From Bacteroidaceae bacterium (GTDB lineage: Bacteria > Bacteroidota > Bacteroidia > Bacteroidales > Bacteroidaceae): a stretch of 64,000 nt of DNA. The translations under genes were made by a program, and so were the position numbers. Below the pieces are notes generated by a model. That model was given only the letters and a program-made list of their open reading frames with translations. It did not search any database and was not told the DNA's origin. The DNA lies in contig JAIKWU010000076.1 of NCBI GenBank assembly GCA_024684455.1, positions 89,645 to 153,644 on the forward strand, given 5' to 3'. This document shows, piece after piece, positions 1,766 through 42,039 of this stretch (position 1 is the stretch's first letter; the number at the start of each line of letters is the position of its first letter).

Positions 1766-2920
1766 ATGCTACTCACTGCTTTACCGATGATGGTCTGCCT
1801 GTTCTGGACAGTTTTTTTGCTGACCAACTACTTCGAGACGCACGATCCTGTACGGGGTCGTCTGTCGGTGTTCATGCTGGCGGCGACATTGCTGTATGCA
1901 GGTCATTATGTTTTTTTTAACCGCTACGAGGAGTGGATTCCACTGAGCGATACGGTGTATGTGTATGCGAACCTGTCGGTCTATCCTCTCTATCTGTGGT
2001 ATATTGATAAACTGACGGAAGGACCTGACCGTCCGAACTTCTGGCGGCGTCTGCTGTTTTTGATTCCTCTGCTGGTGGCGAGTGCGACGTGGATTACTTA
2101 TCAGCGAATGGATGCGGCACAGACGGCTGCGTTCATTGACGCTTATCTCTATCGAGGCAGCATGGAGGGACTGAGCGGTGCCGCCTACGTTCAGGCAGTC
2201 ATCCATGCGGTGGCGCGTCTGCTGTTTGCCGTGCAGATTCTGCCGATATTCATTGCGGGCAACCGCCGTCTTCACCTGTTCGACCCGAAGAGGGAGAAGG
2301 GCCTGCACGGCATCCGCTTCCTGCTGATGCTCTTTGCAGTGGTGTCGTTTTTCTCGTTTGTTTCCAACCTCGTGGGGCGACACCAGTTCTCGTCGTCACA
2401 CATGCTACTGGCTGTTCCTTCGGTGGCTTTTTCAGTGTTTCTTTATTATATAGGATATTTGGGGTATAGGGTGAGACCCAACGGACCCACTCCCTTGCCC
2501 CTCCCTGTGAGGGAGGAGAGTAATTACCCTCATTCTGAGACATTCTCCTCCCCTCCCTCACAGGAAGAGGTAGGAGGGGAGCCCGTGATGTCTTTGCGCG
2601 AACAAATCGAGCACTTGATGAAGGTAGAAGGTGCTTTTCTGCAGCCTAACCTTAAAATCAGCGACATGGCTCAACGGCTGGGCTCAAACCGTAACTATAT
2701 CTACGAAGCGATTAACAAGGAGATAGGGATGTCGTTCTCGGAGTATGTGAACCGTCTGCGTGTGGCGCATTCGCAGGAACTGATGAAGAAGCATCCCGAC
2801 ATGCTGCTGGGTGAGGTAGCGGTAAAGTCGGGTTTCAGCAGCATGGTCAGTTTCTACCGTTCGTTCAAGAAGTATGTGGGCTGTGCACCGAAGGAATGGC
2901 AGTCGGACCACCATGAGTAG
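1766..2920 (+). CDS. Membrane-anchored AraC-family transcriptional regulator (N-terminal multi-TM domain, C-terminal HTH)
   Basis: Hydrophobic helices fill the first ~235 aa. The C-terminal AraC HTH reads ...ISDMAQRLGSNRNYIYEAINKEIGMSFSEYVNRLRVAHSQELM...SGFSSMVSFYRSFKKYVG. The linker carries the family-1 repeat doublet. Confidence 0.85.
   Translation: MLLTALPMMVCLFWTVFLLTNYFETHDPVRGRLSVFMLAATLLYAGHYVFFNRYEEWIPLSDTVYVYANLSVYPLYLWYIDKLTEGPDRPNFWRRLLFLIPLLVASATWITYQRMDAAQTAAFIDAYLYRGSMEGLSGAAYVQAVIHAVARLLFAVQILPIFIAGNRRLHLFDPKREKGLHGIRFLLMLFAVVSFFSFVSNLVGRHQFSSSHMLLAVPSVAFSVFLYYIGYLGYRVRPNGPTPLPLPVREESNYPHSETFSSPPSQEEVGGEPVMSLREQIEHLMKVEGAFLQPNLKISDMAQRLGSNRNYIYEAINKEIGMSFSEYVNRLRVAHSQELMKKHPDMLLGEVAVKSGFSSMVSFYRSFKKYVGCAPKEWQSDHHE
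2484..2584. repeat. Family-1 GC-rich hairpin repeat, inverted doublet A, inside the AraC-family CDS
   Basis: gacccactcccttgcccctccctgtgagggaggagagtaattac ... ctcctcccctccctcacaggaagaggtaggaggggagccc. Translated in frame as PTPLPLPVREESNYPHSETFSSPPSQEEVGGEP. Confidence 0.85.
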
Positions 2921-3798
2921 AGTCGGCGCAAACGCCGTGAAGGCAGGTTGAGAAAGAGTCGTTGACGGGGAGAGAACGTCATGCCGACGTGCTGCATGTC
3001 GCGTAGGATTTCACGAAAAAAAACAGAGTCTTGCCACACACTGCGAGGTTCGTCGAGTGTGGCTGCAAAGAGATTGGCGATACGGTCGATGAGTGTATCG
3101 CCCAGATAGTCGTCGACGACGTCGGAGGGTATGGAACCCATGCGTAGACGGTTGAGACGTTCGCAGTATTCGGTCGTCCAGCGAAAGACGTTCGACGTGT
3201 GTTCCTCGCCTTTCAGATAGATGCTTTCGTGTAGTGTGCGCACGTCTTTCTGCGTCTGGAAAATGAGGCGAAGCCAGAAGAGATAGTCTTCGCCGTTGAT
3301 GATTTCACGAGGAAGGTCGAACTGGTGGGCATTGAGTGCTGAGTGGCGATAGAGACTGCCCCAGGGCACGCCGATAGTTCCTTCGCCGCGCACGGTCAGA
3401 TGGCGGAAGAGTTCGATGGGGACTGTTCCTGTCGGATATCCGATGCTGGCACTGTTGCCCAGCACAATGTCGGTGTCATCGGTAGCGTTTTGCAGCAGAC
3501 GCTCGATGCCATCGACTCTGAGTTGGTCGTCGGCATCGACATAGGTGAGCCATTCGCCCGCAGCCTGCTGAGTGCCTCTCCAACGTGCGGCAGTGCGGCC
3601 CTGGTTGGGCTGATGGACGACGCGGATGCGGCTGTCCTGTTGTGCCTTGGCGTCGCAGATGCGTCCGCTCTCGTCGGGCGACCCGTCATCGACAAGCACG
3701 ATGTCAACGTCTGTGTGGGTTTGATGACAGAGGCTGTCGATGCACGCCGCAATCGTGTCGGCAGCGTTATAGACGGGAACGACGATGGAGACGGTCAT
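2854..3798 (-). CDS. Family 2 glycosyltransferase
   Basis: N-terminus MTVSIVVPVYNAADTIAACIDSLCHQTHTDVDIVLVDDGSPDES is a GT2 signature. Its ATG overlaps the upstream stop (ATGA). Its 3' end overlaps the convergent AraC gene by 67 bp. Confidence 0.85.
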   Translation of the reverse strand: MTVSIVVPVYNAADTIAACIDSLCHQTHTDVDIVLVDDGSPDESGRICDAKAQQDSRIRVVHQPNQGRTAARWRGTQQAAGEWLTYVDADDQLRVDGIERLLQNATDDTDIVLGNSASIGYPTGTVPIELFRHLTVRGEGTIGVPWGSLYRHSALNAHQFDLPREIINGEDYLFWLRLIFQTQKDVRTLHESIYLKGEEHTSNVFRWTTEYCERLNRLRMGSIPSDVVDDYLGDTLIDRIANLFAATLDEPRSVWQDSVFFREILRDMQHVGMTFSPRQRLFLNLPSRRLRRLYSWWSDCHSFGAQPTYFLNER

Positions 3799-5090
3799 GG
3801 TTGGGAATAGTCAACGTGGAAGACATCGACACAGTTGCCGCCACGGGTGCCGCGTCCTTGCGAGGTGGTGATGACGGTACGTCCGTCCTGCGAGATGTCC
3901 AGTCCGACGGTGTAACTGTCGGCAGGAACGCTGAGCACGAGGCGCATGCTTTGTGTGTCAACGATGTCCAGACGGCTGTCCATGTTGCAGGCGGCAAAGA
4001 CGTAGCGGCCGTCGGGCGAGAGTTCGATGGTGCGTGCACCGGCACCGACCTTACACTCCTGCCAGCCTGTGACCGTGGCAAGGTGATTGTTGAAATGATG
4101 TGCTGCATCGAGAAAACGGTCGAGACGGATGCGCTGCACGTAGCCTGCACGATTGATGGAGAGGTAGAGCCAGCCGTCGCGGATGACGAGATGGCGCACG
4201 TTGGCACGCATACCTTGCATACGTCCGAGGTACTGTTTTGTCTGCATGTCAATCACGGCAATACCACCGCCCTGTCCCATGCAGCCTACGAGCAGGTAGC
4301 GGTCGTCGGGTGTGAACACCGTGCCGCGCAGACACCAGCCGCTGTCGTCGTCGCGATCGACCTGCATGTCGAGGCCGAAGTTAAGGTCGAGTTTCTTGTC
4401 AATTACGAAAAGGTGTTCATACTTCCAATCACGAGGATGGGGACTCTGGATGTTAATCACGCCGACGGTGTTGTCGCCCCAGTGTGTCACCACCATCCAA
4501 CGTCCGTCGTGGCTCGGACACACCATCTTCGGCAGTGGACCTGTCTCCAGGACGACGACAATGCTGTCCTTTTCGGTGTCAATCACGGCCATCGCCGACG
4601 GCTCCTGCGCATTGAGGTCGAACGTGCGGCGATAGAAAGGGACCCAGAAGTAGCGTCCACCGTGCGAGAAAGCACCCTCGACAGGCTTGCCCTGGAAAGT
4701 GTGCAGGTTCTCGGTGTAGAAGCGAAAAGGAAAGAGTTCGTGCTGTTCGAGAAACAGCGCTGTGTCGGCTTCGGTGAAATTGTGCTCAACGACGGCCAGT
4801 TTTCTACGGCTCACCATGTCGTAGGCAATGGTCTTGCAGCCTTCGAGGCTATTGATGTAGAACTTCTTGCCGCGGGGATGAATGTTGGCAGACTTCGGCG
4901 AGTGGATGTCGGCATCGGGCTGAGGTTCAGCAGCGCTTGTGCTGAAGTTCTGAAACTTGTCCACCAGCGTGACGCTGATACTGCCGTCTTTCGCCGTCAG
5001 CGTCTGCCCGATGCGTGGATGTACTTCGGGATAGGTCTGAGCGAACAGCGAGGTCGCACAGAGAGACAGGAGGAAAAGCCAATGCTTCAT
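3795..5090 (-). CDS. Secreted beta-propeller repeat protein (YncE/YVTN-like); paralog of the 5087-6568 gene
   Basis: Start trimmed to MKHWLFLLSLCATSLFAQ (signal peptide), which forms an ATGA overlap with the upstream stop. Shares ADIHSPKS.NIHP.GKKFY.NSLEG, PSAMAVIDT, LRGTVFTPDD.YLLVGCMG and MRAN.RHLVI with its neighbour. Confidence 0.65.
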   Translation of the reverse strand: MKHWLFLLSLCATSLFAQTYPEVHPRIGQTLTAKDGSISVTLVDKFQNFSTSAAEPQPDADIHSPKSANIHPRGKKFYINSLEGCKTIAYDMVSRRKLAVVEHNFTEADTALFLEQHELFPFRFYTENLHTFQGKPVEGAFSHGGRYFWVPFYRRTFDLNAQEPSAMAVIDTEKDSIVVVLETGPLPKMVCPSHDGRWMVVTHWGDNTVGVINIQSPHPRDWKYEHLFVIDKKLDLNFGLDMQVDRDDDSGWCLRGTVFTPDDRYLLVGCMGQGGGIAVIDMQTKQYLGRMQGMRANVRHLVIRDGWLYLSINRAGYVQRIRLDRFLDAAHHFNNHLATVTGWQECKVGAGARTIELSPDGRYVFAACNMDSRLDIVDTQSMRLVLSVPADSYTVGLDISQDGRTVITTSQGRGTRGGNCVDVFHVDYSQP

Positions 5091-6568
5091 TGCTGACGAT
5101 GTTTTTGAATAAAGATGAGGATGAGCATGATGACCATGCTGATGCCGGCAACCCATAGGAGAATCGTGGGTGAAGGAATAGAGGACGTTTTCTCTTTTGC
5201 CGGTGCAGGGGTAGCAACGGTGTCTGTTTCTACGACTTCTTCGGCGGGTTCGGCAGGCTTGGGTGCCACCTCGGCTTCAGCATATTCGACGCTGTAGATG
5301 TTGACAGCGTTGCCGCCGCCACTGCCGCTATGGCCCTGCGAGGTGACGATGACGATACTGCCGTCGTCAGAGATGTCCAGCCCTACGGGATAACTGTCAA
5401 CGGGCGTCGAGCACACCATCTTCATGCTGCGTGTATCAGCGACGCACAGACGACTGCCGCCGTTGCAGGCTGCAAAGAAGAAACGTCCGCTGGGCGAGGC
5501 CTCGATGGTGCGTGCGCCGCTCATAACGGTACACTCTTCCCAACCACTAACCGTGGCAGTCTTGCCTTGCATCTGTCGTGCTGCGTCCATGAATTTGCTG
5601 AGCGGCATCCGCTGGATGACACCGGCAGCGTTGCTGGAGAGGTAGAGCGTGTCGTTCTTGATGACGAGGTGGCGGATGTTGGCACGCATACCGAGCATAC
5701 GTCCCATGTACTTCTTGGCCTTCAAGTCAATCACGGCGATGCCGCCTGCACCGCCCATGCAGCCGACGAGCAGATAGTTGTCGTCGGGTGTGAATACTGT
5801 GCCTCGCAGTGCATAGCCGCTACCGTTGTCACGGTTGACAGACTCGCTGAGGCTGAAGTTGAGTTTCAGTTGGTAATCGACGATGTAGAGTTGGTCGTAG
5901 TGCCAGGACGCAGGGTCGTCGCCGCTGATGTCCAGCGTCGCCACGGTGTTGTCGCCCCAGTGACTGATGGCCACTGTACGGCCGTCGTGCGACGATGCCA
6001 CCATCTTCGGCAGCGGACCTGTCTCGAACAGGCGGACGATGGTGTCACGGTCGGTATCAATCACAGCCATCGCCGACGGGTCTTGTGCATTGATGTCGTA
6101 GGAACGGCGGTAGTAGGGCACCCACAGATAACGTCCGCCGTGCGTAAACGTGCTCTCGACGGGCTTGCCGCTGAAAGTGTTCAGTGCGCGGCTGCCATTG
6201 TTGTAGTGGCGGAAGGGGAACAGTCCGCTGGGTTTTGCCCACAGTGTGCGATGGCTGTCGTCAAACTGGTGGTGGATGACTTTCAGTTTCTTCCATGTCC
6301 CCATCTCATAGACGACGGTGCAGAAGCCTTCGAGCGAGTTGACGTAGAACTTCTTGCCGCTGGGGTGGATGTTGACCGACTTCGGACTGTGTATGTCAGC
6401 ATCGTAGGTCTGGCGGTCGCCTGTGCTGAAACTCTGAAACTTGTGCAATAGCGTGAGCCTTACGCTGCCGTCGGCTGCCTGGTCTGTCTGTCCGATGCGG
6501 CTGTGAACGACGCCTTGTGCCCATGCAGTCGTGGCATAGAGCGACAGGAGGATGAGTAGTTGTTTCAT
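5087..6568 (-). CDS. Beta-propeller repeat protein with signal peptide and an extra C-terminal transmembrane anchor
   Basis: MKQLLILLSLYATTAWAQ signal peptide. Paralogous to the 3795-5090 gene. The C-terminal tail ...SSIPSPTILLWVAGISMVIMLILIFIQKHRQQ forms a TM helix. ATGA overlaps at both ends. Confidence 0.65.
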   Translation of the reverse strand: MKQLLILLSLYATTAWAQGVVHSRIGQTDQAADGSVRLTLLHKFQSFSTGDRQTYDADIHSPKSVNIHPSGKKFYVNSLEGFCTVVYEMGTWKKLKVIHHQFDDSHRTLWAKPSGLFPFRHYNNGSRALNTFSGKPVESTFTHGGRYLWVPYYRRSYDINAQDPSAMAVIDTDRDTIVRLFETGPLPKMVASSHDGRTVAISHWGDNTVATLDISGDDPASWHYDQLYIVDYQLKLNFSLSESVNRDNGSGYALRGTVFTPDDNYLLVGCMGGAGGIAVIDLKAKKYMGRMLGMRANIRHLVIKNDTLYLSSNAAGVIQRMPLSKFMDAARQMQGKTATVSGWEECTVMSGARTIEASPSGRFFFAACNGGSRLCVADTRSMKMVCSTPVDSYPVGLDISDDGSIVIVTSQGHSGSGGGNAVNIYSVEYAEAEVAPKPAEPAEEVVETDTVATPAPAKEKTSSIPSPTILLWVAGISMVIMLILIFIQKHRQQ

Positions 6569-8778
6569 TTTGCAGATGATTGTGAAAGGATTTCGACATG
6601 CTGCACTTCCGACTCCTTGCCTTTGTATAGGATGTCGATGCGGAATGAGGCTGCGTCGCTGTAGATGTGGAGCGGGAGGACCTCTTCGTCTGCAGGTTCG
6701 TAGTCGAAGCGCAGGTGGATGGTAGTGCCGCTAAGGTAGTTCTCCACAGGTTTCAGTGCATCGTCGCTGTCGAGAGGTCGCAGTGAAAAGATGGGGTCTG
6801 TCATGGCGATGACACGTGGCAGTTGGATGCGGAGTGAGTGGTCCTTGCTCTTGAACCATCCTGTGAAGGTGTCCCACCACGACTCGTCTTTTTCGGCATC
6901 GTCGTTGGTCACCACCGTCGTTCCCTCCCTGAGTGTGTTCTGGAGTTTCGACGGCACGAGCGAGTAGTTGCGCAGATATTCCTCGCGGGCTTGTTGTTGC
7001 TGCTGTGAGCGGTCACGCCGTTCACCTCGCAGGAATGCCAATGCCGACGCTTCCTTGTAGTGTACGTCATCCACCCAGCAGATGCGGTCGTCGGTCATGG
7101 CGATAGCACGGATGCGGGTGATGTCGTCGTACGATTTGCCTGGGTAGCAGAGGTGGACGGTGTCGAGGTCGGCCGTCGAGCGTTTCGGGATGATGTTCAG
7201 CGTCTTCGGCACCTTGATGACGTCGTACTCGTCGCGGTACATGTCGGTGTAGTGGATGCAGAGATAGACGCGCACGTTTTCCAGGTCGATGTCGCTGCGG
7301 TTGTTCAGTTTCACACGCATCACATTGTCGCTGTGCCAGAAGAGCCACGAGGTCTCGGGTTCAATCTGTACGTCGAGGTACGACTGCTCAAGCAGCAGGC
7401 TCTTGAACGGCGCATAGAGGTTTTCTTCGCAGAACTGCATGTCGCTCAGCAGTTCGTCGTAGATGCCTTGGTTGCCGCGACGGAAGAAGTGGTTGTAGAT
7501 TTCGTCACGCGCCTCGTCCATACGGCCTTGGTTGGCATAGTGGCGTGCCTTCAGCAGGTTGGGACTGAACAGTCCGTAGCCCTCCATGGTCGAGGCATAC
7601 AGGCGGCGCAGATACTGCCCTTCGGGTGTCTTCTTCAAATAAGTACGCATGTTGTAGGCGTCGAGCATGTCGGTCAGTCGTGCTGCCTGACGCGGATATT
7701 CCACCGAAGCCTGGTGGAAGCAACTCAGCGCTGCCTGCTCATTGCCGATTTGCTGGTTCATCAACCCTTCGAGTACAAGGGCTGGAGCCGTGCGGTCGGG
7801 ATAGAGCGATTTGTATTTTTCTAGCAACTGAGCGGCCTCTCCTCCCACGGCCTCTCCTCCAGTCTGAGAAGGAGGGGAGGATAAAGTGTCTTCAAACTGG
7901 GAAAAGTGACTGCTCCCCTCCCTCTCAGGGAGGGGTTGGGGGAGAGTCTGCTGTTGTTTAGTTTGCAATAATATCTGCCCCATCGCTTCGAGCAGCATGG
8001 CTTCGCCGCATGTCGGATATTTGCGAAGAATGTTGCCCGTGTGCTTCAGCGCCTCATCCGTACGACCAGCGTAGAGGTCGAGGTAAGCCTTGTCTTTTTC
8101 GGTGCAGAGGGCGTCGTACTCATCCATGTACTTTTTGTAGATGGGCGTATAGTCCTCGAGATATTGGCGGTAGGTCAGTTTCAGCATCTGCAGGTCTTGC
8201 TGAATCTGCGCCTTCAGTTCCTTGTCCTCTTCATATTGCGAGAACACCTCGTCCATGCTTTTGTCGGCATTCTCGCCTGCTGCCAGTCCGAGCACGGCGA
8301 AGAAGTCGCCTGCCGCGGCACGTATGATGCTGCTGATCGAGATGTTCTCGACCATGGTCTGTCCGCCTCGGGCAGCACTGCGGGCCAGCCGCCACGTATC
8401 GCTCAGTTGCTTGTCTTGCTTCTGCAACTTGTACATATACTCCAGTACGGGGAACAGTTTGCGCTTGGCCTCAAGCACGTCTGGGGCCACGCCCGTGTAG
8501 TCCTGATGGGCCATGAAGTTGAGAAATTCATCGAAACTTTCGCTGCGCACCTGTGCCATTTCCATGGCGTTGAGCACGCGCACTGTCTGCTCCAGGTCGT
8601 AATCGCGACCCTGCTGCAGTTGTTCCTGTCGCTGAATGGCTTCGTAAGCAGGCACAAACTCTGCCGCCGGCTTATAGTGTTCGAGGTCGAGCGACAGCAG
8701 GTCGGTGTCGGTGCCACGGCTACAGCCGCTGAGCATGAGTGTCAATACGGCAAGGACTGAAAAAGCAATCTTCTTCAT
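6565..8778 (-). CDS. Large lipoprotein of unknown function (helical/TPR-like N-terminal half); first gene of a 4-gene coupled operon
   Basis: MKKIAFSVLAVLTLMLSGC lipobox. 737 aa. Contains family-1 doublet B in frame. Confidence 0.6.
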   Translation of the reverse strand: MKKIAFSVLAVLTLMLSGCSRGTDTDLLSLDLEHYKPAAEFVPAYEAIQRQEQLQQGRDYDLEQTVRVLNAMEMAQVRSESFDEFLNFMAHQDYTGVAPDVLEAKRKLFPVLEYMYKLQKQDKQLSDTWRLARSAARGGQTMVENISISSIIRAAAGDFFAVLGLAAGENADKSMDEVFSQYEEDKELKAQIQQDLQMLKLTYRQYLEDYTPIYKKYMDEYDALCTEKDKAYLDLYAGRTDEALKHTGNILRKYPTCGEAMLLEAMGQILLQTKQQQTLPQPLPEREGSSHFSQFEDTLSSPPSQTGGEAVGGEAAQLLEKYKSLYPDRTAPALVLEGLMNQQIGNEQAALSCFHQASVEYPRQAARLTDMLDAYNMRTYLKKTPEGQYLRRLYASTMEGYGLFSPNLLKARHYANQGRMDEARDEIYNHFFRRGNQGIYDELLSDMQFCEENLYAPFKSLLLEQSYLDVQIEPETSWLFWHSDNVMRVKLNNRSDIDLENVRVYLCIHYTDMYRDEYDVIKVPKTLNIIPKRSTADLDTVHLCYPGKSYDDITRIRAIAMTDDRICWVDDVHYKEASALAFLRGERRDRSQQQQQAREEYLRNYSLVPSKLQNTLREGTTVVTNDDAEKDESWWDTFTGWFKSKDHSLRIQLPRVIAMTDPIFSLRPLDSDDALKPVENYLSGTTIHLRFDYEPADEEVLPLHIYSDAASFRIDILYKGKESEVQHVEILSQSSAK
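7836..7949. repeat. Family-1 repeat, doublet B (left unit degenerate, with an internal ggcctctcctcc duplication), inside the lipoprotein CDS
   Basis: The right unit gtgactgctcccctccctctcagggaggggttgggggagagtct is a clear family member. Translated on the minus strand as TLPQPLPEREGSSHFSQFEDTLSSPPSQTGGEAVGGEA. Confidence 0.75.
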
Positions 8779-8950: not shown

Positions 8951-9024
8951 TGTAGGGACGACCCGTGGGGCGTCCCGATTGGTGTTTCCTGTCCGACATG
9001 GACGCCCCACGGGTCGTCCCTACA
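8951..9024. repeat. Family-2 REPIN-like inverted doublet (perfect 25-nt arms, 24-nt spacer)
   Basis: tGTAGggacgacccgtggggcgtcc - 24 nt - ggacgccccacgggtcgtccCTACa. Each arm also has an internal GGGACG/CGTCCC palindrome. Confidence 0.85.
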
Positions 9025-12451: not shown

Positions 12452-13498
12452 TTACGAAATTTTCTGCGAACTGCTGTCATCTTCAGCCAAAAACTTTGGC
12501 TTTTTGGGCCATCTTCCACTCAGCCAAGGTACTTTCTCGACGTAGGGAACGAGCAGGAAGCACACGCCGAAGATGAGCATAAGCAGGATGGTGTAGTCGT
12601 CCCAGTGGCCACGGAGGCTGCGCACGTTGGCTGTACGGATGAGTTTGTAGAGTTGCAGGATAGGGTAGTGTGCCACGAAAAAGACCATCGAGTGCTCACC
12701 GATGTAGTTGATGACAGGGATGCGGGGTGTGTGCAGTTTGATGAGCAAGCCGCTAATGCCGCAGAGCGATGTCACCGTCGAGGCGACGATGATCCAGCAG
12801 TTTCCGTTCCAGGCGTTGGCACTCATGGTGTACTGGCCATGCCATGTAGCGTTCAGCCAGACGAACACGCCGATGAGCAACACCGAAACAGTCAGTGTGA
12901 GTTTGCTGCCCATACGCTCCATCAGCCATCGCCATACACGACCGAGGAAGAAGAGGAAGATGCCGAAGAAGACGTTGTTGAGGCTCAGCCACAGCGGATT
13001 GCCTTCAGTGTAGAGCCACCACGAAATCATCGGAAAGGCGAGCACCACCCAGCGCAGGCCTCTGACTTTGGAGATAAAGTGCATGGCGATGTATGCCCAG
13101 AAGAACGAGAAGAGGAACCACGTGGGCGAGTTGCCGAAGAACGACGAGGTCTGCCACACGTGTTCCCACGTCGTCATCTTCACCACCGTGCTCTTCGGGT
13201 CGAGAATGAACCATACGAAAGTGAAGTGGACGATGTTGCCGATGAGTCCCCACGTCAGGTACGGCACGAGCAGACGCTTCGCCTTGTCGATGCAGTACTG
13301 GCGTGAGTTGCCGCTGATGGTCTTGTTGAAATAGCCAGCCTTGAAGAAGAAGAACGACATGAAGTAATAGGTCCATGCCATCACTTCGGTCCACCATTCC
13401 GCCTTGCCGAAGCCACATGTGTCGGTGATGTGGAGCACAATCATGCGGATGATGCAAATCCCGCAGAGAAGGTCGAAGGTGTGGTTGCGCTGTTTCAT
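12452..13498 (-). CDS. Acyltransferase-3 family membrane O-acyltransferase
   Basis: Polytopic. The N-terminus MKQRNHTFDLLCGICIIRMIVLH is paralogous to the 16144-17169 gene. Confidence 0.75.
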   Translation of the reverse strand: MKQRNHTFDLLCGICIIRMIVLHITDTCGFGKAEWWTEVMAWTYYFMSFFFFKAGYFNKTISGNSRQYCIDKAKRLLVPYLTWGLIGNIVHFTFVWFILDPKSTVVKMTTWEHVWQTSSFFGNSPTWFLFSFFWAYIAMHFISKVRGLRWVVLAFPMISWWLYTEGNPLWLSLNNVFFGIFLFFLGRVWRWLMERMGSKLTLTVSVLLIGVFVWLNATWHGQYTMSANAWNGNCWIIVASTVTSLCGISGLLIKLHTPRIPVINYIGEHSMVFFVAHYPILQLYKLIRTANVRSLRGHWDDYTILLMLIFGVCFLLVPYVEKVPWLSGRWPKKPKFLAEDDSSSQKIS

Positions 13499-14679
13499 GG
13501 TTCAGGATTTGCTTTTTTGGTTCCTCGCCCGAACAGGTACTTCTTCAGCACGGGACTGACGCGCAGGACGTGCGACACCAGACAGCAGGCAGCGATGACG
13601 AGCAGTGCCATTGCGATGGTTGCGGTCTGTTCGAGCACGATGTTCGGACGGTTAGCATTGAACCAGATGCCCACTTGTGGCACTTTCGGCATGAGGATGA
13701 AGTGGAGGAGGTAGATGTCGAGCGTGCGGATTCCTATGTACTGCAAGGCGCGTCCGATGCGCGTCTGTTTCGACAATGCCTGCTCATAATGCCGGAAGGT
13801 CATCACGATGATCATCATCAGCGAGTACATTGACACGGTGCGTGGCAAGTTGGTCCATGCAAACCTCAGCGTGTGCCATTTCAGGGTGTCGGCCGTGGCA
13901 AAGAATGCCACCACGACCATGAGGATGAAGAACCACCGTGTGTCCATCAGTCGCTCCACGCGATGCCAGTAGCGGTGGACGATGTTGCCGAAAAGGAAGA
14001 AGTGAAGGTACTGCACCACCATGATGAGGCTCGACCACTGCATGAATTCCGACTTCGGCCAGGTAAACACTTTCGGCAGGTAGGTCATTTCGTAGAGCAC
14101 GAGGCTCACCGCCCATAATAACCAAATGGACCAGTGAGGCACTCCAGACCCACCCCCTTGCCCCTCCCTTGTAGGAAGGGGAGTAGATACTACTTTTCCT
14201 TGAGAATCTGGCTGCTCTGAGTGACCACTCCCCTCCCTCACAGGGAGGGGTCGGGGGGTGGGTCTTGTAATATAATCAAATAGATAATAGACGATGAACA
14301 TAACGAGCAGTGCCCACGTGAACCAGTAACCGCTCTTGGTCGGACGGTGCAGCGTATCGACCAGCGTCTCCCAGAAGTGCGGATGACGAACGACGATGCA
14401 CACGCAGAGGAACACCAGCGTCGGTATCATCTGAATCTTCACCTTCTTCCACACTGCCATACCCAGACGGACGGGCGTCCACAGCATCTCGGGCTTCCAT
14501 GCCAGAAATCCGCTGACGAAGAAGAACAGCGGCATACGGAACAGTACGACGAAGGGCATCGATGCCGATGTCTTCAGATTGATGCCGTAGCACATCTGTG
14601 CTACATGGTAGGCGACGACCATAATCATCGTAAACCCACGAAGGGCGTCGAGCCACTCAAGTCGTTTGTTGTTTCCCAT
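13495..14679 (-). CDS. Acyltransferase-3 family membrane protein carrying a 40-codon family-1 repeat insertion
   Basis: MGNNKRLEWLDALRGFTMIMVVAYH is an acyltransferase_3 N-terminus. ATGA overlap with the downstream gene. Insert peptide: RPTPRPLPVREGSGHSEQPDSQGKVVSTPLPTREGQGGGSG. Confidence 0.75.
   Translation of the reverse strand: MGNNKRLEWLDALRGFTMIMVVAYHVAQMCYGINLKTSASMPFVVLFRMPLFFFVSGFLAWKPEMLWTPVRLGMAVWKKVKIQMIPTLVFLCVCIVVRHPHFWETLVDTLHRPTKSGYWFTWALLVMFIVYYLFDYITRPTPRPLPVREGSGHSEQPDSQGKVVSTPLPTREGQGGGSGVPHWSIWLLWAVSLVLYEMTYLPKVFTWPKSEFMQWSSLIMVVQYLHFFLFGNIVHRYWHRVERLMDTRWFFILMVVVAFFATADTLKWHTLRFAWTNLPRTVSMYSLMMIIVMTFRHYEQALSKQTRIGRALQYIGIRTLDIYLLHFILMPKVPQVGIWFNANRPNIVLEQTATIAMALLVIAACCLVSHVLRVSPVLKKYLFGRGTKKANPEP
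14146..14265. repeat. Family-1 repeat, inverted doublet C (120 bp) inside the acyltransferase CDS
   Basis: agacccacccccttgcccctcccttgtaggaaggggagtagatac - 30 nt - gtgaccactcccctccctcacagggaggggtcggggggtgggtct. Confidence 0.9.
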
Positions 14680-17175: not shown

Positions 17176-17835
17176 TTAGTTATACATGTGTACCATGGTG
17201 CCGTTGAAGTCGATGTGGTATTGGTACAGCGGTCGTGGGTCGGGGTGAAGCCCGTTGCCTTTTCCGTCGATGAAGTAGGTGTCGTTTTGAAGGGCATAGA
17301 CGATGCCGCAGTGGTTGCACTTCGCTTGCGAGCCTTGAACTTTCAGCCGCCACTGTGCCTGATCGCAGTTGGGGCAGGCGAGGTCGAAGCAGCACCGTGT
17401 GCCGTCGATGTCGTTGCCGATGATGAGTCCGCCGAGACCGAAGTGAAAATCCTTCTGCAGCGCGTCCATCTTGTATAATGGTTCGCTCTTCACTCCTTCG
17501 CACTCCATGTAGATTTCGCTGCCCACCTGTCGTATCAGTGCAAAGACACCGAAGCCGCCCACGGCAGGCTGCAGTTCCTTGTACGAGGCGATGTTGAAGC
17601 CGCACATCACGCGATATTTGGTCGAATACTTACTCGAGGTCGGCAGGAGGTCCTCCTTCTTGCAGTTGGTCAGACAGAGGAGAGCCAAAGCGAGGCAGAG
17701 GGCCTGTGGGATAAAAGTACGTCCAAGTGCTTGGAAAATTAACGCTAAGTGCTTGGCGTGACGACTCCAAGTGCTTAGCGTGACGACGCTAAGCACTTGG
17801 AGTGCATCAAGAAATGTGTTCTGTCGGTCTTTCAT
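17176..17835 (-). CDS. Hypothetical lipoprotein with a CxxC...CxxC motif; start codon uncertain
   Basis: Lipobox ...LALALLCLTNC. Contains CPNCDQAQW...CNHCG. The only in-frame ATG (17835) lies upstream of the family-3 repeat array, so the array would be translated. Confidence 0.5.
   Translation of the reverse strand: MKDRQNTFLDALQVLSVVTLSTWSRHAKHLALIFQALGRTFIPQALCLALALLCLTNCKKEDLLPTSSKYSTKYRVMCGFNIASYKELQPAVGGFGVFALIRQVGSEIYMECEGVKSEPLYKMDALQKDFHFGLGGLIIGNDIDGTRCCFDLACPNCDQAQWRLKVQGSQAKCNHCGIVYALQNDTYFIDGKGNGLHPDPRPLYQYHIDFNGTMVHMYN
17722..17801 (+). repeat. Family-3 modular palindrome element, 4 modules phased at 22 bp
   Basis: tccaagtgcttgga (17722), gctaagtgcttggc (17744), tccaagtgcttagc (17766), gctaagcacttgga (17788). 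Modules 3 and 4 form a 15-bp-stem hairpin. Confidence 0.9.
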
Positions 17836-27656: not shown

Positions 27657-28240
27657 GATTTTGTTATTTTACCATATAGATAGCCGCCTACACCAGCCGC
27701 GAGAATAATCCAGATGGGGCTGATGCCCAGAGCCCAGATGAGCAGACAGGCCACAACGGGAATCCACACGTTGCGCAGGTTCAACTTGGCGGTCTTAGCC
27801 ATTCGGAACACAGGTGCGGCTATCAGAGCGACCACCGCAGGACGGATGCCACGGAAGGCTTTCTCTACGTAGATGTTATCCTTGAACTGTTGGAAGAAGA
27901 TGGCAATGAGCAGGATGGTTACGATACTGGGCAGTGCCACTCCCATCGTACCCACAATGCCACCCCACACACCAAACCGCTTGTGTCCGATGTGTGAAGC
28001 CATGTTCATGGCAAAGAGCCCTGGCATGGCCTGCGACACGGCGAGGATGTTCATAAAGTCCTCACGGCTCAGCCACCCGTGCTTGTCCACCACTTCACGC
28101 TCCATGATGGGCACCATCGCGTAGCCTCCACCGAGCGTGAAGGCACCGACCTTGAGGAAGGTGAGAAAGAGAGGACCCACCCCCTCCCCCTCCCTGTGAG
28201 GGAGGGGCGTGATTACTTTATCAATATCGTCCTGTATCAT
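27653..28240 (-). CDS. chrA: Chromate transporter family protein (half-size ChrA, first of a pair); N-terminus encoded by the family-1 repeat
   Basis: FLKVGAFTLGGGYAMVPIMEREVVDKHGWLS. The N-terminal MIQDDIDKVITPLPHREGEGVGP maps onto doublet D (spacer plus unit). Confidence 0.8.
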   Translation of the reverse strand: MIQDDIDKVITPLPHREGEGVGPLFLTFLKVGAFTLGGGYAMVPIMEREVVDKHGWLSREDFMNILAVSQAMPGLFAMNMASHIGHKRFGVWGGIVGTMGVALPSIVTILLIAIFFQQFKDNIYVEKAFRGIRPAVVALIAAPVFRMAKTAKLNLRNVWIPVVACLLIWALGISPIWIILAAGVGGYLYGKITKS

Positions 28241-28304
28241 TATAATAAAAAAGACGGAAGTGACTACTCCCCTCCCTCACAGGGAGGGGCTGGGGGGAGG
28301 GTCT
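28174..28304. repeat. Family-1 repeat, inverted doublet D, straddling the purL stop and the chrA start
   Basis: gacccaccccctccccctccctgtgagggaggggcgtgattac - 43 nt - gtgactactcccctccctcacagggaggggctggggggagggtct. Confidence 0.92.
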
Positions 28305-31987: not shown

Positions 31988-32067
31988 TCTAAGTACTTGG
32001 AAAAAACACGCTAAGTGCTTAGCGTTCTCACTCCAAGTGCTTAGCGTTGTAACGCCAAGCACTTGGA
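31988..32067 (+). repeat. Family-3 modular palindrome element, 4 modules phased at 22 bp
   Basis: tctaagtacttgga (31988), gctaagtgcttagc (32010), tccaagtgcttagc (32032), gccaagcacttgga (32054). By eye about 80-85% identical to the 17722 copy. Confidence 0.9.
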
Positions 32068-32073
32068 GCGGTT

Positions 32074-32742
32074 CTACATCTGCCCACTTTCGATGAGCAA
32101 TATGGCTCTTTCAGTCAGCCGGTCATCGACTTCGGGGTCGTACTCCTTCTTCAGGCTGGCTCCGAAGAGCGAGGCGAAGGCGTTGTAGAATCCGGCCTTG
32201 AATCCGCCCATATACGTCTTGATGAGTTCGTAGGAGGTGCGGTTGGTCTGGCGGTCAATGAGTTTGATGAGCAGTTTGCCCTGTCCGAAGGTCAGTTTCT
32301 TCAGGCGCGGCGTCCACTTCTTCTTCATCTCCTTTTCCATCTGTTTGAGGAAGGCATCCTTCTCTTGTTTGGTCTCGAGCGAGTCCATGTGCGCAATCTG
32401 TGCCTCGATTTCGTGCTGGATTTCGACGGCAATCGGATAGACCTTCTTGATGTTGTTCGCTATCTTGTAGTACTTCTTCATCTCCCGCTCGTTCTTGAAC
32501 ACCAGCGGCGGAAAGACATATACCTCGGACAGCACAATCAGCGGTATCATTTCGCCGTCGGTGTCCTCGACCATGCCGGCGAAGCCCATGGCGTGCGAGA
32601 AGACAGGGGATCCCGTGTAGTGCTCAGCCATGCCTGGCTGCTCAACGATCTGTGCGAGCAGACTCACCCCCTTGCCCCTCTCTGCGAGGGAGGGGAGTAG
32701 AAAGAGTAGGAATATGATAATTGTCAGTCTTCGCATCAGCAA
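32074..32742 (-). CDS. DUF4294-like secreted protein
   Basis: Signal-like N-terminus. ...LTFGQGKLLIKLIDRQTNRTSYELIK... region. A solo family-1 unit sits in the N-terminal region. Confidence 0.6.
   Translation of the reverse strand: MLMRRLTIIIFLLFLLPSLAERGKGVSLLAQIVEQPGMAEHYTGSPVFSHAMGFAGMVEDTDGEMIPLIVLSEVYVFPPLVFKNEREMKKYYKIANNIKKVYPIAVEIQHEIEAQIAHMDSLETKQEKDAFLKQMEKEMKKKWTPRLKKLTFGQGKLLIKLIDRQTNRTSYELIKTYMGGFKAGFYNAFASLFGASLKKEYDPEVDDRLTERAILLIESGQM
32660..32700. repeat. Family-1 repeat, solo unit E, inside the signal-peptide region of the DUF4294-like CDS
   Basis: agactcacccccttgcccctctctgcgagggaggggagtag. Translated on the minus strand as LLPSLAERGKGVS. Confidence 0.8.
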
Positions 32743-35470: not shown

Positions 35471-36373
35471 TTATTTCTGTATTTCTTGTGATGCTTTTTG
35501 TTGTACTACACGACATCCTGCAGGCACGTCCTGTGTCACCCAGATGTTACCACCGACGGTGGCACCGCGCCCGATGGTGATGCGGCCGAGGATGGTGGCA
35601 TTGGAATAGACAATGACGTCGTCCTCGAGAATTGGGTGACGCGGGATTCCCTTGATGGGCTTTCCCTCCTCGTCGAGCGGGAAAGAGCGTGCACCGAGGG
35701 TCACGCCCTGATAGAGTTTGACGTGGCGGCCGATGATGCAGGTTTCGCCGATGACGACGCCTGTGCCGTGGTCGATGGTGAACGATTCGCCAATCTGTGC
35801 ACCAGGATGTATGTCGATGCCCGTCTCGGAGTGTGCCATCTCTGTCAGCATACGCGGAATGAGCGGTACGCCGAGTTGTAGCAGTTCGTGTGCCATACGG
35901 TAGTTGGTCAGTGCCTTGATGACAGGGTAGCACGAGATGATTTCGCCATGATTCTTGGCGGCAGGGTCGCCCTCATAGGCGGCGACCACGTCGGTAGTGA
36001 GCAGGCGGCGCAGTTCGGGCAGGGCTGCAACGAACTTCTGAGTGATGTCGTTGGCTTTTTCTTTCAGGGCAGGGCGTTCCAGTTTGCGTTCGTATCCCAA
36101 GGCAATCTTTACCTGTTCGCGCAGCAGTCGTGCCATGCGGTCCACACGCACGCCGATGTAATACTTCAGCGTGTCGCCATAGACAGGCGTTTCGCCATAA
36201 TGGTAAGGAAACATCACATCGCGCATGAGGTCGATGATTTCAGCCAGCGTCTTTTCGCTGGGCATACGGAACACCTGCGTGTCTCGGTCGAAGAGTGTCT
36301 GCAGCGATTCGATGCAGGACAGGCTTTCGACGGAGTCTGTCAGTGTTTTGTGTCTGATGGTGTTATTTTGCAT
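35471..36373 (-). CDS. cysE: Serine O-acetyltransferase
   Basis: Start trimmed to MQNNTIRHK. Left-handed beta-helix hexapeptide repeats ...GTGVVIGETCIIGRHVKLYQGVTLG... 11-bp overlap with the upstream gene. Confidence 0.85.
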   Translation of the reverse strand: MQNNTIRHKTLTDSVESLSCIESLQTLFDRDTQVFRMPSEKTLAEIIDLMRDVMFPYHYGETPVYGDTLKYYIGVRVDRMARLLREQVKIALGYERKLERPALKEKANDITQKFVAALPELRRLLTTDVVAAYEGDPAAKNHGEIISCYPVIKALTNYRMAHELLQLGVPLIPRMLTEMAHSETGIDIHPGAQIGESFTIDHGTGVVIGETCIIGRHVKLYQGVTLGARSFPLDEEGKPIKGIPRHPILEDDVIVYSNATILGRITIGRGATVGGNIWVTQDVPAGCRVVQQKASQEIQK

Positions 36374-39808: not shown

Positions 39809-39826
39809 TGCCGACAAATGCTTTTG

Positions 39827-39834
39827 CAAAGGTA
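39827..39834 (-). promoter_or_regulatory. -7 box TACCTTTG for recN
   Basis: The reverse complement of caaaggta, 19 bp upstream of the ATG at 39808. Confidence 0.6.
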
Positions 39835-39972
39835 CGATAAATAATTGGGAAATGAATCATTCTAAGTTATAAATAATGTGAAACCCTTGTACGGAGTACA
39901 AAAAATGTCGGAATTGGCTGCCGAAACTGCTGTTTGGCAGCGTGCATGACGTGTGGCAGCAGACGGAACTGA

Positions 39973-40075
39973 GTACCACCACGGTGGTACAAAAGTTTCA
40001 GCGCAGTGGTACGACAATTTCTCTGCGCTGAAACATTTGTTTCACTGCGGTGGTACAGTCGTACCACTGCGGCAC
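39973..40075. repeat. Family-4 array: five 15-18-bp palindromes phased at exactly 22 bp
   Basis: gtaccaccacggtggtac (39973), gtttcagcgcagtggtac (39995), atttctctgcgctgaaac (40017), gtttcactgcggtggtac (40039), gtaccactgcggcac (40061). Confidence 0.85.
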
Positions 40076-40217
40076 GCTCTGTTTGGTACGGTTGTATCAA
40101 GGTGTGGGCACTGAGATAACCCTTTGTTGATGCCGCATTGCGATGTTCATGGGGTAAAAAAATGTTACAAACGGAATTTTTGCACCGAAAATGTTTGGCT
40201 GATTCGGAGGAAACCCT

Positions 40218-40225
40218 TAACTTTG
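40218..40225 (+). promoter_or_regulatory. -7 box TAACTTTG upstream of greA (implies a ~120-nt leader)
   Basis: TAnnTTTG match. No closer match was seen before the ATG at 40352. Confidence 0.4.
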
Positions 40226-40351
40226 CAGCCGAAAAGGTAAAAAGGAGGGTTCCGACGTTCATTATCGTGCGTTGGGATTCTTTTCTTTTTGACACCTTTT
40301 TTTGAGAAACCTAATACGTAAAACGTTCATTCACACGTAAGTAAAAACACT

Positions 40352-40816
40352 ATGGCATACATGTCACAAGAAGGCTATGACAAACTCAGAGCCGAAATCA
40401 AACGCCTGGAAGAGGTGGAACGCCCCGATGTAATCCGCCAGATTCAGGAAGCCCGCGAGAAGGGCGATTTGTCGGAAAACGCAGAGTACGACGCCGCGAA
40501 AGAGGCGCAGGGCAAACTCGAAACAAAGATTGCCGTGCTGAAAGCCGAACTCGCCGACGCCAAGATTCTGGACCTGTCGAAGGTACAGACCGATGTCGTG
40601 CAGATTCTCTCGAAAGTGGAGATGAAGAACGTCAAGACAGGCATGGTGATGACCTACACCCTCGTCAGCGAAGGCGAAGCCAACCTGAAGGAAGGCAAAA
40701 TCTCAGTGGGCACACCGATTGCACAAGGACTGCTCGGCAAGCGCGTCGGCGACGTCGCTACCATCAACATTCCACAGGGACAGATTGAACTTCAAATCAC
40801 CAACATCAGCATTTGA
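40352..40816 (+). CDS. greA: Transcription elongation factor GreA
   Basis: MAYMSQEGYDKLRAEIKRLE...AREKGDLSENAEYDAAKE, the GreA coiled-coil signature. Confidence 0.93.
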   Translation: MAYMSQEGYDKLRAEIKRLEEVERPDVIRQIQEAREKGDLSENAEYDAAKEAQGKLETKIAVLKAELADAKILDLSKVQTDVVQILSKVEMKNVKTGMVMTYTLVSEGEANLKEGKISVGTPIAQGLLGKRVGDVATINIPQGQIELQITNISI

Positions 40817-40822
40817 TAGAAT

Positions 40823-41221
40823 ATGGGAATCTTTGCCAAAATCGCAGCAGGAGAAATTCCAAGTTATAAGTGCGCTGAGAACGATGAGTTCTACGCCTTC
40901 CTCGACATCAACCCCCTGGCCAAGGGGCACACCCTGTGCATCCCCCGCCGCGAGGTCGATTACATCTTCGACATGGACGACGACGAACTGGCCCGCTTTC
41001 AGGTGTTCGCCAAGCACGTCGCCGTGGCACTCCGTCGCGCCTGCCCCTGTGTCAAGGTCGGTCAGGCCGTGCTCGGGCTCGAAGTGCCCCACGCACACAT
41101 CCACCTCGTGCCCATGCAGTCGGAAAAGGACATGCAGTTCAGCAATCCGAAACTCCAACTGCCGCAGGAGGAAATGCAGGCCATCGCTGCGAAAATCTTT
41201 GATGAATACCAGAAACTATGA
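40823..41221 (+). CDS. HIT-family (histidine triad) protein
   Basis: HAHIHLVP histidine triad. 132 aa. Confidence 0.88.
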   Translation: MGIFAKIAAGEIPSYKCAENDEFYAFLDINPLAKGHTLCIPRREVDYIFDMDDDELARFQVFAKHVAVALRRACPCVKVGQAVLGLEVPHAHIHLVPMQSEKDMQFSNPKLQLPQEEMQAIAAKIFDEYQKL

Positions 41222-41985
41222 CGCTCAACATCATTAAAGTTGGCGGAGGAATCGTTGAGAAAGAGGAAAACCTGAACCTGCTTCTCAACGATTTTTCTCT
41301 TTTGCAAGGTCCGAAACTGCTTGTACACGGCGGCGGCCGCCTCGCTACGACGCTTGCCACACAGATGGGCATCGAGACCCACATGATTGGCGGTCGTCGC
41401 GTGACTGACGCCGACATGCTGCGCGTCGTCACGATGGTCTATGGCGGACTGGTCAACAAGCGCATCGTTGCCCAACTCCAGGCACGCGGCATCAACGCAC
41501 TGGGCCTCACAGGTGCCGACTGTAACGTGATTCGCAGCCATCGTCGGCAAGAGGGCAACTGGGGTTTTGTCGGCGACGTGGACCGCTGCGACGGCGAGAT
41601 GCTCGCCACGCTCATCCGTCAGGGCATCACCCCCGTCGTCGCTCCGCTCACCCACGACGGCAACGGCCAACTGCTCAACACTAATGCCGACACCATCGCC
41701 TCTGAAGTGGCCAAGAGTCTCGCCACACATTTCGACGTGACACTCACGTTCTGCTTTGAGAAGAAAGGTGTGCTACGTGACTGCAACGACGACGACAGTG
41801 TCATCGCCCACATCAGTGCCGCAGACTTCTGCCTGCTCCGCGAACAGGGCATCGTCGCCGACGGCATGGTGCCTAAACTTGAAAACGCACTCAACGCCTG
41901 CCGTGCAGGTGTCAAGCGCGTCGTCATTACTCGTGCTGACCAACTCGGACAGCAGGACAGCGGAACGGTAGTTACATTAGAATAG
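41218..41985 (+). CDS. argB: Acetylglutamate kinase
   Basis: IIKVGGGIVE...VHGGG amino-acid kinase fold. ATGA overlap with the HIT gene. Confidence 0.85.
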   Translation: MTLNIIKVGGGIVEKEENLNLLLNDFSLLQGPKLLVHGGGRLATTLATQMGIETHMIGGRRVTDADMLRVVTMVYGGLVNKRIVAQLQARGINALGLTGADCNVIRSHRRQEGNWGFVGDVDRCDGEMLATLIRQGITPVVAPLTHDGNGQLLNTNADTIASEVAKSLATHFDVTLTFCFEKKGVLRDCNDDDSVIAHISAADFCLLREQGIVADGMVPKLENALNACRAGVKRVVITRADQLGQQDSGTVVTLE

Positions 41986-41995
41986 AGAGAATCTT

Positions 41996-42039
41996 AGGCT
42001 TCTCCCCCCCTCGCCACTGGGTGAGGAGAGAACCATTAC
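41996..42039. repeat. Degenerate solo family-1-like unit between convergent argB and yidD; likely terminator hairpin
   Basis: ggcttctccccccctcgccactgggtgaggagagaaccattac. The yidD TAA stop lies in its ...cattac end. Confidence 0.5.

Follow-up and report, generated by a model that had tools for sequence, protein, structure and literature searches.

The DNA analyzed here is a 64-kb stretch (below, the window) within a 155-kb contig from a rumen bacterium, a metagenome-assembled genome (MAG) labelled "Bacteroidaceae bacterium" at NCBI, and its subject is a family of short, GC-rich hairpin repeats that lie in frame in protein-coding genes. A search with the hairpin core (CCCCTCCCT-NNN-AGGGAGGGG, allowing up to 2 to 3 mismatches) gave eight matches in the window, beginning at 2498, 2550, 7915, 14161, 14230, 28187, 28269, and 32675. 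The expectation from 100 dinucleotide shuffles was 0.01 matches, and none of the shuffles (0/100) gave eight. Read from the sequence, the repeats form four inverted doublets and one solo unit. The doublets are those described in an earlier reading of this DNA (the original prediction), with AGACCC(A/T)CCCC tracts facing outward, as had been claimed, and AGTAG/GTCAC facing inward; the same reading claimed at least 10 copies, of which we count nine recognizable units. The units have ends that resemble terminal inverted repeats (AAGACCC...GGGTCTT), and as single-stranded DNA the doublets give long hairpin folds (z-scores of −3.3 to −7.3). No Rfam family matched the repeats at gathering thresholds, either in the window or in seven full-length loci of the wider family.

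Pfam identified five of the six host genes named in the original prediction (HTH_18/AraC, Acyl_transf_3, Chromate_transp, PurL domains, and DUF4294); the sixth, a 737-amino-acid (aa) protein that had been called a lipoprotein, gave no Pfam match. All five host proteins that were looked up are annotated by NCBI as intact, element included (MCR4613989, MCR4613993, MCR4613999, MCR4614011, and MCR4614013). Three doublets lie deep within unbroken open reading frames (ORFs). The first (2484 to 2584) is in the ORF of an AraC-type helix-turn-helix regulator (1766 to 2920, plus strand), where two slightly decayed cores (2498 to 2518 and 2550 to 2570) are translated as GPTPLPLPVREESNYPHSETFSSPPSQEEVGGEP (aa 240 to 273 of 384), i.e., GPTPLPLPVREES...SSPPSQEEVGGEP, between the N-terminal part and the HTH_18 domain (aa 301 to 379). 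The second (7836 to 7949) is in the 737-aa ORF (6565 to 8778, minus strand); its left arm is degenerate, its right core (7915 to 7935) is perfect, and its peptide is QTLPQPLPEREGSSHFSQFEDTLSSPPSQTGGEAVGGEA (aa 277 to 315), i.e., QTLPQPLPEREGSS...SSPPSQTGGEA. The third (14146 to 14265, a 120-nucleotide [nt] long form with cores at 14161 to 14181 and 14230 to 14250) is in the Acyl_transf_3 ORF (13495 to 14679, minus strand) and encodes RPTPRPLPVREGSGHSEQPDSQGKVVSTPLPTREGQGGGS (aa 139 to 178 of 394), i.e., RPTPRPLPVREGSG...TPLPTREGQGGGS. A low-confidence AlphaFold2 model (mean predicted local distance difference test score, 48.5) places this segment in a coil loop between predicted helices 118 to 138 and 183 to 199.

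The remaining copies supply the ends of genes. The fourth doublet (28174 to 28304, minus strand; cores at 28187 to 28207 and 28269 to 28289) forms the junction of PurL and ChrA. One unit provides the last 13 codons of PurL (QTLPPAPPCEGGE) and its TAG stop (28264 to 28266), which falls within the conserved AGTAG; the ATG of ChrA (28238 to 28240) is in the doublet spacer, and the second unit encodes ChrA residues ~9 to 22 (VITPLPHREGEGVG), so that the element supplies the first ~22 codons in all. The solo unit (32660 to 32700; core at 32675 to 32695 with one mismatch) lies in the DUF4294 ORF (32074 to 32736, minus strand) and encodes LLPSLAERGKGVSL, residues ~13 to 26 of the 220-aa NCBI protein, in the signal-peptide region. 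The frames used are those expected to be open from the consensus, namely PLPxREG (dominant), SPPSQGG, and, at the PurL end, APPCEGGE*. The doublets and the solo unit overlap coding sequences, as had been claimed for every clear copy; a second proposed solo copy, described as degenerate, is at 41996 to 42039. Because the latter lies between the convergent ends of an acetylglutamate kinase gene and a YidD gene (neighbors assigned by Pfam), it is intergenic and doubtful as a copy; it has no core match within three mismatches, was not accepted, and is probably either a nonmember or decayed past recognition.

Comparison with orthologues argues that the window repeats are lineage-specific in-frame insertions, as close relatives of the host proteins either lack the element or hold a 51-nt form of it. 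Acyltransferase orthologues at 65 to 77% identity (354 to 365 aa) have no such segment, and one at 94% (P0001, L121) and another at 81% (P0002) have a 17-aa, 51-nt form where the window has 120 nt. In the DNA of L121, this form is a single perfect palindrome, AGACCCACCCCCCGA-CCCCTTCCT-GTG-AGGGAGGGG-CAA-GGGGGTGGGTCT; the window copy consists of the 51-nt palindrome plus 69 nt placed directly after the hairpin loop. Each of these lengths (51, 69, and 120 nt) is divisible by three, which, together with the open frames, indicates read-through translation. ChrA relatives in the same 90% cluster start with MMQLFLTF and are 175 aa long, against a start of MIQDDIDKVITPLPHREGEGVGPLFLTF and 195 aa in the window, while PurL relatives end in WIEKKQAAAVR (1226 aa) and the window protein ends in WIEKQTLPPAPPCEGGE (1232 aa), the tail KQTLPPAPPCEGGE replacing KKQAAAVR. 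The original prediction had allowed that orthologues might keep the peptides without the repeat; for acyltransferase, ChrA, and PurL, relatives were found without the segment. Its proposal of mobile palindromes in frame in unrelated genes, in the manner of Rickettsia palindromic elements (RPEs), is supported by both the ORF positions and the orthologue indels. No empty allele was found for the AraC regulator: each of the six full-length proteins in its 90% cluster carries the element. The element region of the 737-aa protein is a linker that varies in length and sequence across all orthologues, and the N termini of DUF4294 cluster relatives vary at the position of the solo unit.

Two of these host sites show further variation. 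Within the 90% cluster of the 737-aa protein, P0570 differs from P0565 (aa ~270 to 320) in that only the element region is rewritten (PTPLSESEGE...SPTLPEREQ), and other members have small in-frame indels there; the element-derived segment evolves far faster than the remainder of the protein. Acyltransferase orthologues at 58% identity (P0010, P0012, P0013, and P0023) carry a different Pro/Gly/Arg-rich insert in the same loop (GPLRLPRGGE...PASPRGGE...), probably a unit of another hairpin subfamily. If so, the shared site would make this loop a recurrent landing place.

Strong predicted hairpins, some of them at gene ends, would also suit a conserved, nonmobile cis-acting or structural motif (a terminator, RNA element, or protein motif), and a sequencing or assembly artifact might be suspected as well. 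Presence and absence among close orthologues, the unrelated hosts, and the copies deep in ORFs all speak against such explanations, as do the lack of an Rfam family match and the occurrence of the family in complete genomes of isolates and in many independent assemblies. We assign them a next to negligible probability.

The motif recurs widely outside the window, as had been anticipated. A core scan of one genome per species, with only the stem as query, found at least 120 loci. Among the matches listed, 17 loci have the same extended unit and come from MAGs of rumen Prevotella, Prevotellaceae, Bacteroidaceae, and Bacteroidales. The listed matches also include many from Sphingomonadaceae, Planctomycetota, Chloroflexota, and Acidimicrobiia and one from an Acidovorax, in addition to rumen Bacteroidales, and the unit alone, without a gene, likewise occurs among them in Planctomycetota, Chloroflexota, and Actinomycetota. 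The family is thus not bound to Prevotella, a point missed in the original prediction. Although only the stem was queried, a (G)ACCC(A/T)CCCC tract stands on one side in nearly every listed match. In the 17 related loci, 34 to 41% of cores lie at least 60 to 100 aa deep in ORFs, compared with 54 to 73% of random positions. The repeats thus occur in gene interiors less often than chance would predict, although they are far more genic than a classical extragenic repeat. The frame PLPxREG is used by 20 of the 32 cores in these loci. Further copies within ORFs were found in L008, L034, and L100, as well as in L082, with three units in one ORF of >1,200 aa, and L112, with two doublets in one ORF. 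Sphingomonadaceae doublets (L016, L020, L055, L092, L094, L106, and L109) have their tracts facing inward, and their spacers begin and end with a further conserved palindrome, GCGAGCG(T/C)AGCGAGCC ... GGCTCGCTACGCTCGC.

Among the matches listed, five loci contain an ORF of ~120 to 125 aa located exactly between two inverted units, in Prevotella (L116 and L099) and in Sphingomonadaceae (L016, L109, and L063). In L116 (Prevotella sp. UBA2456), the units are at 2018 and 2472 and the ORF at 2068 to 2442; in L099 (Prevotella RGIG7592), a gene of the same family lies between the same units. Pfam assigns the ORFs to DUF559 (PF04480; E values of 6e-31 to 1e-33), and sequence matches in the PDB are 3hrl (E value, 5.7e-17) and 3r3p, "Mobile intron protein" (E value, 8e-4). 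The latter is listed under "Group I intron homing endonuclease" in a study that places VSR, DUF559, and DUF2726 in one group along with structures 1cw0, 3hrl, and 3r3p (PMC3424549), and we take it to be I-Bth0305I, a characterized intron-encoded endonuclease (PMC3239194). DUF559 has been assigned to the EDxHD homing-endonuclease family (PMC9403480). Only the full-length relatives encode this Vsr/DUF559/I-Bth0305I-type nuclease; the window copies are gene-less. We consider it probable that the window repeats are gene-less miniatures of small selfish DUF559 cassettes. A doublet is then better viewed as a cassette with an internal deletion than as two independent units, and DUF559 would be the enzyme that spreads full-length and miniature copies alike.

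Two better-known kinds of mobile repeat bear on the assignment of an enzyme. The repeats could be ordinary miniature inverted-repeat transposable elements of an insertion sequence, whose DDE transposase would recognize the AAGACCC...GGGTCTT ends; terminal inverted repeats, small size, and many copies fit this account. It is nevertheless highly improbable, for no target-site duplication is visible, no transposase ORF lies beside the units in the 120 listed loci, the inward-facing tracts of the Sphingomonad type are unlike a terminal-inverted-repeat layout, and the only gene-bearing relative encodes a PD-(D/E)XK-type nuclease of ~125 aa. Alternatively, the repeats could be repetitive extragenic palindromic (REP) elements or their inverted doublets (REPINs), moved by a single-copy REP-associated tyrosine transposase (RAYT, of the IS200/IS605 HUH type) encoded elsewhere in the genome. 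The inverted doublets do resemble REP dimers or REPINs, whose units are 20 to 100 bp apart (PMC3733652); GTAG stands beside the hairpin; REPs within genes are reported for several species; and RAYT subclasses occur in Bacteroidetes (PMC6006769). Canonically, however, the hairpin of a REP has a conserved GTAG or CGTC at its 5' foot (PMC3733652), whereas the present units carry AGTAG (AGCAG in Sphingomonads) 3' of the G-arm, in the order hairpin-A-GTAG, and thus read 5'-CTACT-hairpin on the other strand (5'-CTAC-hairpin, where a REP has 5'-GTAG-hairpin). A six-frame regular-expression search of the window and 123 loci, which is a weak test, detected no ORF with an HUH...Y motif. All-against-all clustering of ORFs from the 120 listed loci showed no dominant neighbor family and no protein family recurring beside the units, the DUF559 cluster being confined to six loci, and the gene found between inverted units is DUF559 rather than RAYT. 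A REP/REPIN origin is accordingly very unlikely in our view.

The association of DUF559 with hairpins extends to metagenomes, where a search of contigs with an alignment of the five DUF559 proteins left 80 loci. Perfect C-arm hairpins (minimum stem, 6; maximum distance from the gene, 130 nt) were present on both sides in 40 of the 80 loci and on one side or both in 57, and hairpin density was 3.86 per kb in the flanks versus 0.17 per kb elsewhere, a 23-fold difference. The arms are alike within a locus and unlike between loci (CCCCTCCCT, CCTCCCCC, CCCTCTCCCC, CCTTCCCCC, and CCCCTCTCCATC). Hairpins elsewhere on a contig match its flanking arms at 0.95, compared with 0.80 for the arms of other loci; the flanking arms were the better match in 34 of 38 cases, with 17 from one locus. 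The exact hairpin family of the window also flanks a DUF559 gene in four metagenome loci (L125, L126, L128, and L204). The L116-type subfamily has 1,132 database relatives (E ≤ 1e-10), mostly free-standing proteins of 123 to 130 aa named "endonuclease domain-containing protein," "DUF559 domain-containing protein," or "very-short-patch-repair endonuclease." In one locus of GC content 0.60 (L152), ~20 CCTCTCCC-type hairpins form a dense array around a single DUF559 gene, which looks like a local pile-up of units. DUF559 genes have been flagged as targets of "programmed inversions" in a study that does not describe the cassettes (PMC9881135); the flanking inverted units would be the reason for that flagging.

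Cassettes are also translated within host proteins. In 14 of the 80 loci, a single reading frame covers DUF559, both units, and 60 aa or more of the host ORF to either side. The hosts identified by Pfam are LeuRS (six loci), a DegT-type aminotransferase (three loci), RecG (two loci), and, in one locus each, a WecB epimerase, an M14 peptidase, and a DNA methylase. LeuRS has insertions at more than one site: DUF559 follows the editing domain in L149 and precedes it in L139, L151, L158, and L163, and a single LeuRS ORF in L145 (1260 to 4382) has two DUF559 domains at different sites. The ORFs run unbroken through the cassette, Pfam shows host domains split by DUF559 and no domains other than these, and no Hint or splicing domain was detected by Pfam in the fusion proteins, nor any Rfam intron at the cassettes of seven full-length loci. 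The insert is presumably kept in the mature fusion protein, between Pro/Gly-rich linkers. For DegT, PF01041 and PF04480 occur in one protein of 544 to 632 aa in 119 of the best 120 database relatives, among which the most populous fusion cluster has 203 members. The embedded endonuclease of L133 and L137 has nonsynonymous and synonymous divergences (dN/dS) of 0.066/0.97 and is therefore under purifying selection.

Free-standing cassettes, in turn, divide the host gene. The upstream host ORF terminates at or inside the left unit, DUF559 starts at its own ATG, and a conserved ...ATGAATAA at the end of DUF559 gives an ATG to the downstream host ORF, whose N terminus is the translated right unit (MNNNSSSQNHSTPLPTREGQGGGSS...). 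With a TAG inside AGTAG and, immediately ahead of the right unit, an ATG, the cassette can serve as the end of one gene and the beginning of the next. The PurL/ChrA junction in the window has the same stop/start logic without the gene. At the end of the DUF559 ORF, the stop codon overlaps the downstream ATG in the conserved sequence (C/T)AATGAATAA (L116, 2430 to 2445; L204, 2877 to 2884; and L211, 2883 to 2890), an overlap that looks like a built-in translational restart.

Cassettes and miniatures share both insertion sites and borders, as seen in an alignment of DegT orthologues. Site 2 (after GGGALIC; compared at 74 to 96% identity) is empty in P0243, P0263, P0273, P0334, and P0360 (RNAVE|ANEIMWY), holds a gene-less doublet in L133, P0359, P0260, P0269, and L137, and holds a full cassette in L140. 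Site 1 is occupied by a full cassette in L133 and L137 and by one short unit in L140. There, P0359 (from Prevotella pectinovora and 99% identical to L133) is missing precisely the DUF559 segment, which is bracketed by two direct copies of the left unit. In addition, the 3' end of the cassette (ATGAATAA) is still present in the spacers of the miniatures L046 and L026, and the inner borders AGTAG... and ...(A/T)TTCTACT are common to miniatures and cassettes.

A further feature common to divergent subfamilies is the tract just outside the hairpin, which mirrors the C-arm instead of repeating it directly (mean match of 0.81, versus 0.73 for a direct copy and 0.62 for shuffled sequence). Where arms are asymmetric, the mirror is the better match in 94 cases and the direct copy in 9, and we rejected on these counts the idea that the outer tract pairs with the G-arm by Watson-Crick rules. 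The G-rich strand reads C-arm, loop, G-arm, linker, and G-T(A) tract, and each A of the purine arm faces a T or an A (e.g., AGGGAGGGG with GGGGGTGGGT, GGGGGGAG with GTGGGGGG, and GGAGAGGGG with GGGGGTGAGG). By textbook triplex rules, this layout would correspond to an antiparallel purine-motif triplex, and that of some families would also correspond to a four-tract G-quadruplex motif. Relative to the gene, the tract takes the distal position in 28 loci (mean GC content, 0.46; Bacteroidota type) and the proximal position in 26 (mean GC content, 0.60; Sphingomonad type); in both layouts, the gene is at the dyad center of a composite palindrome.

Several observations weigh against derivation of the window repeats from DUF559 cassettes. 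No DUF559 homologue was found by tblastn in the 64 kb of the window. Two L116-type members, checked over 20 and 24 contigs, were each at one fixed locus; such single-locus fixation within a lineage fits a "master" gene present in one copy and gives no direct sign of recent movement of the subfamily. Neither a target-site duplication nor a clean insertion border was seen, a few host residues differing at each border. The protein of L124 is 68% identical to that of L116 with a different stem, and Sphingomonad DUF559 proteins are only ~36% identical to those of Prevotella with the same stem; strict coevolution of protein and hairpin is unsupported by either comparison. Finally, a simple model of a dimer acting on a palindrome does not account for the conserved mirror tract.

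Some of these points would be expected if the hairpin units were primary, spreading by an unknown host process or another enzyme, and DUF559 cassettes homed into the palindromes later, in which case the window doublets need never have held an endonuclease gene. Full-length copies fixed at single loci and the loose coupling of stem sequence to protein similarity would both fit, as would the 51-nt palindrome that stands alone in L121, with the long form in the window as an insertion at its loop, and the DUF559 segment of L133, which sits between direct left-unit copies within an otherwise complete doublet. The same orthologue site, however, holds doublets or full cassettes, and the miniatures keep in their spacers the cassette 3' end (ATGAATAA and the (A/T)TTCTACT tail), as well as sharing the AGTAG and CTACT inner borders with cassettes. 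On balance, we regard a primary role of the units as unlikely, although less so than the transposase-based accounts.

Derivation from DUF559 cassettes can be set out as follows. A complete element consists of a left unit (C-rich tract, C-arm, 3-nt loop, G-arm, and AGTAG), a DUF559 gene of ~125 aa with a Vsr-like fold, and an inverted right unit. Loss of the gene would leave doublets of ~100 to 130 nt, as in the window, and the shortest form is the single perfect palindrome of 51 nt (tract-hairpin-tract), itself a possible landing site. A DUF559 dimer may cut the palindrome, a structure formed by the unit, or the empty site, with repair from a filled copy in the manner of homing. In the order that seems most natural, a cassette would take a palindrome or site, the gene would be lost, and a doublet would remain. 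In most frames and either orientation, the C- and G-runs are translated as Pro/Gly/Ser/Arg/Glu-rich peptides (PLPxREG, SPPSQGG, and GQGGGS) that are presumably flexible; C/G-run palindromes may thus be favored because CCN and GGN codons yield Pro/Gly-rich linkers either way. Surviving copies would be those in loops, linkers, signal peptides, and gene ends.

Whether such cassettes constitute an undescribed class of selfish element is, in our estimation, about evenly balanced. That class would comprise DUF559 cassettes, free of introns and inteins, that reside in coding genes (those for LeuRS, RecG, and sugar-nucleotide enzymes among them), survive by being translated, and shed RPE-like miniatures, at least in Bacteroidota and Proteobacteria. 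Its palindromic ends would serve as Pro/Gly linkers and stop/start modules and probably also as the recognition structure of the nuclease, and the mirror-plus-inverted layout of divergent subfamilies points to a possible intramolecular triplex or G-quadruplex. We found no earlier description of the system in a literature search that left subscription journals largely outside its reach, and sequence strings led only to papers on eukaryotic promoters and G-quadruplexes. The system appears to combine RPE-like repeats with homing-endonuclease elements, and there is a fair chance that, in full, it represents a new class.

The window also contains other repeats. A second palindromic family, of CCAAGTGCTTAGCGT-type nested inverted repeats, occurs at 17722 to 17803, 31989 to 32073, and 47554 to 47606 and is apparently intergenic. 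Inverted repeats of the GTACCACCGCAGTGAAAC type form a third family (39973 to 40071 and 59123 to 59186), and a TGTAGGGACGACCCGTGGGGCGTCC-type inverted repeat with perfect 25-nt arms (8951 to 9024) has a related copy 54 kb away (62984 to 63057). The only Rfam match is an S-adenosylmethionine (SAM)-II riboswitch aptamer (RF01726; 47410 to 47469, minus strand; 52.2 bits versus a gathering score of 44), located ~1.8 kb upstream of a methionine adenosyltransferase gene (44354 to 45640, minus strand), with minus-strand ORFs at 45699 to 46529 and 46501 to 47331 between the two.

DUF559 provides a concrete candidate enzyme partner for in-frame palindromic repeats, which have hitherto had no known enzyme to account for them, and the domain, a very large one of unknown function, would gain a role. 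Natural intermediates are at hand (empty site, 51-nt palindrome, doublet, and full cassette), so that the mechanism is directly testable. If confirmed, read-through translation with built-in linkers would be a third way, beside introns and inteins, for endonuclease genes to reside in essential genes. For annotation, many Pro/Gly-rich insertions, terminal extensions, and odd fusions in gut and rumen Bacteroidota, such as the DegT proteins of 560 to 632 aa and LeuRS with DUF559, would become recognizable as element-derived. In protein engineering, the elements flag sites that tolerate insertion.

Among known systems, RPEs (described by Ogata and Claverie) are short palindromic repeats found in frame in unrelated protein genes of Rickettsia; to our knowledge, they have no enzyme partner. 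The window repeats share with them, and with the REPs noted inside genes by Di Nocera et al. in 2013 (PMC3733652), the presence of in-frame palindromes in unrelated open genes, tolerance in loops and linkers, and presence or absence between relatives. In contrast to RPEs, the window units are GC-rich C-run/G-run hairpins with a mirror-repeat tract, and they occur in Bacteroidota and several other phyla alongside a gene-bearing DUF559 relative; given the C/G-run composition, sequence homology to RPE-1 to RPE-8 is unlikely. REPIN-RAYT systems and REPtrons are alike in their inverted hairpin doublets, their many gene-less and few gene-bearing copies, the location of the enzyme gene between units, and the vertical fixation of copies. 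They differ in that the DUF559 enzyme is a Vsr-like PD-(D/E)XK nuclease instead of an HUH tyrosine transposase and the tag is oppositely placed, and in that copies of the cassette family are often genic and translated instead of extragenic.

Vsr-like (EDxHD) homing endonucleases are represented by I-Bth0305I in a group I intron and by "fractured genes" with split inteins (PMC3239194 and PMC2677866). The DUF559 cassettes have in common with them the nuclease family cluster, residence in conserved housekeeping genes, and occupied and empty sites among relatives. Unlike them, the cassettes have no intron or intein around the gene, are translated through as a domain insertion or split the host by way of their own stop and ATG, and leave abundant gene-less miniatures. 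Inteins with homing-endonuclease domains are likewise in-frame selfish endonuclease insertions in essential conserved proteins, but Pfam finds no Hint or splicing domain in the DUF559 fusions. The GC clusters and "byp" elements of fungal mitochondria are also small, GC-rich, hairpin-forming mobile inserts within ORFs, and byps are bypassed by the ribosome. The window repeats, in contrast, appear to be read through in translation, and their hosts are bacterial chromosomes.

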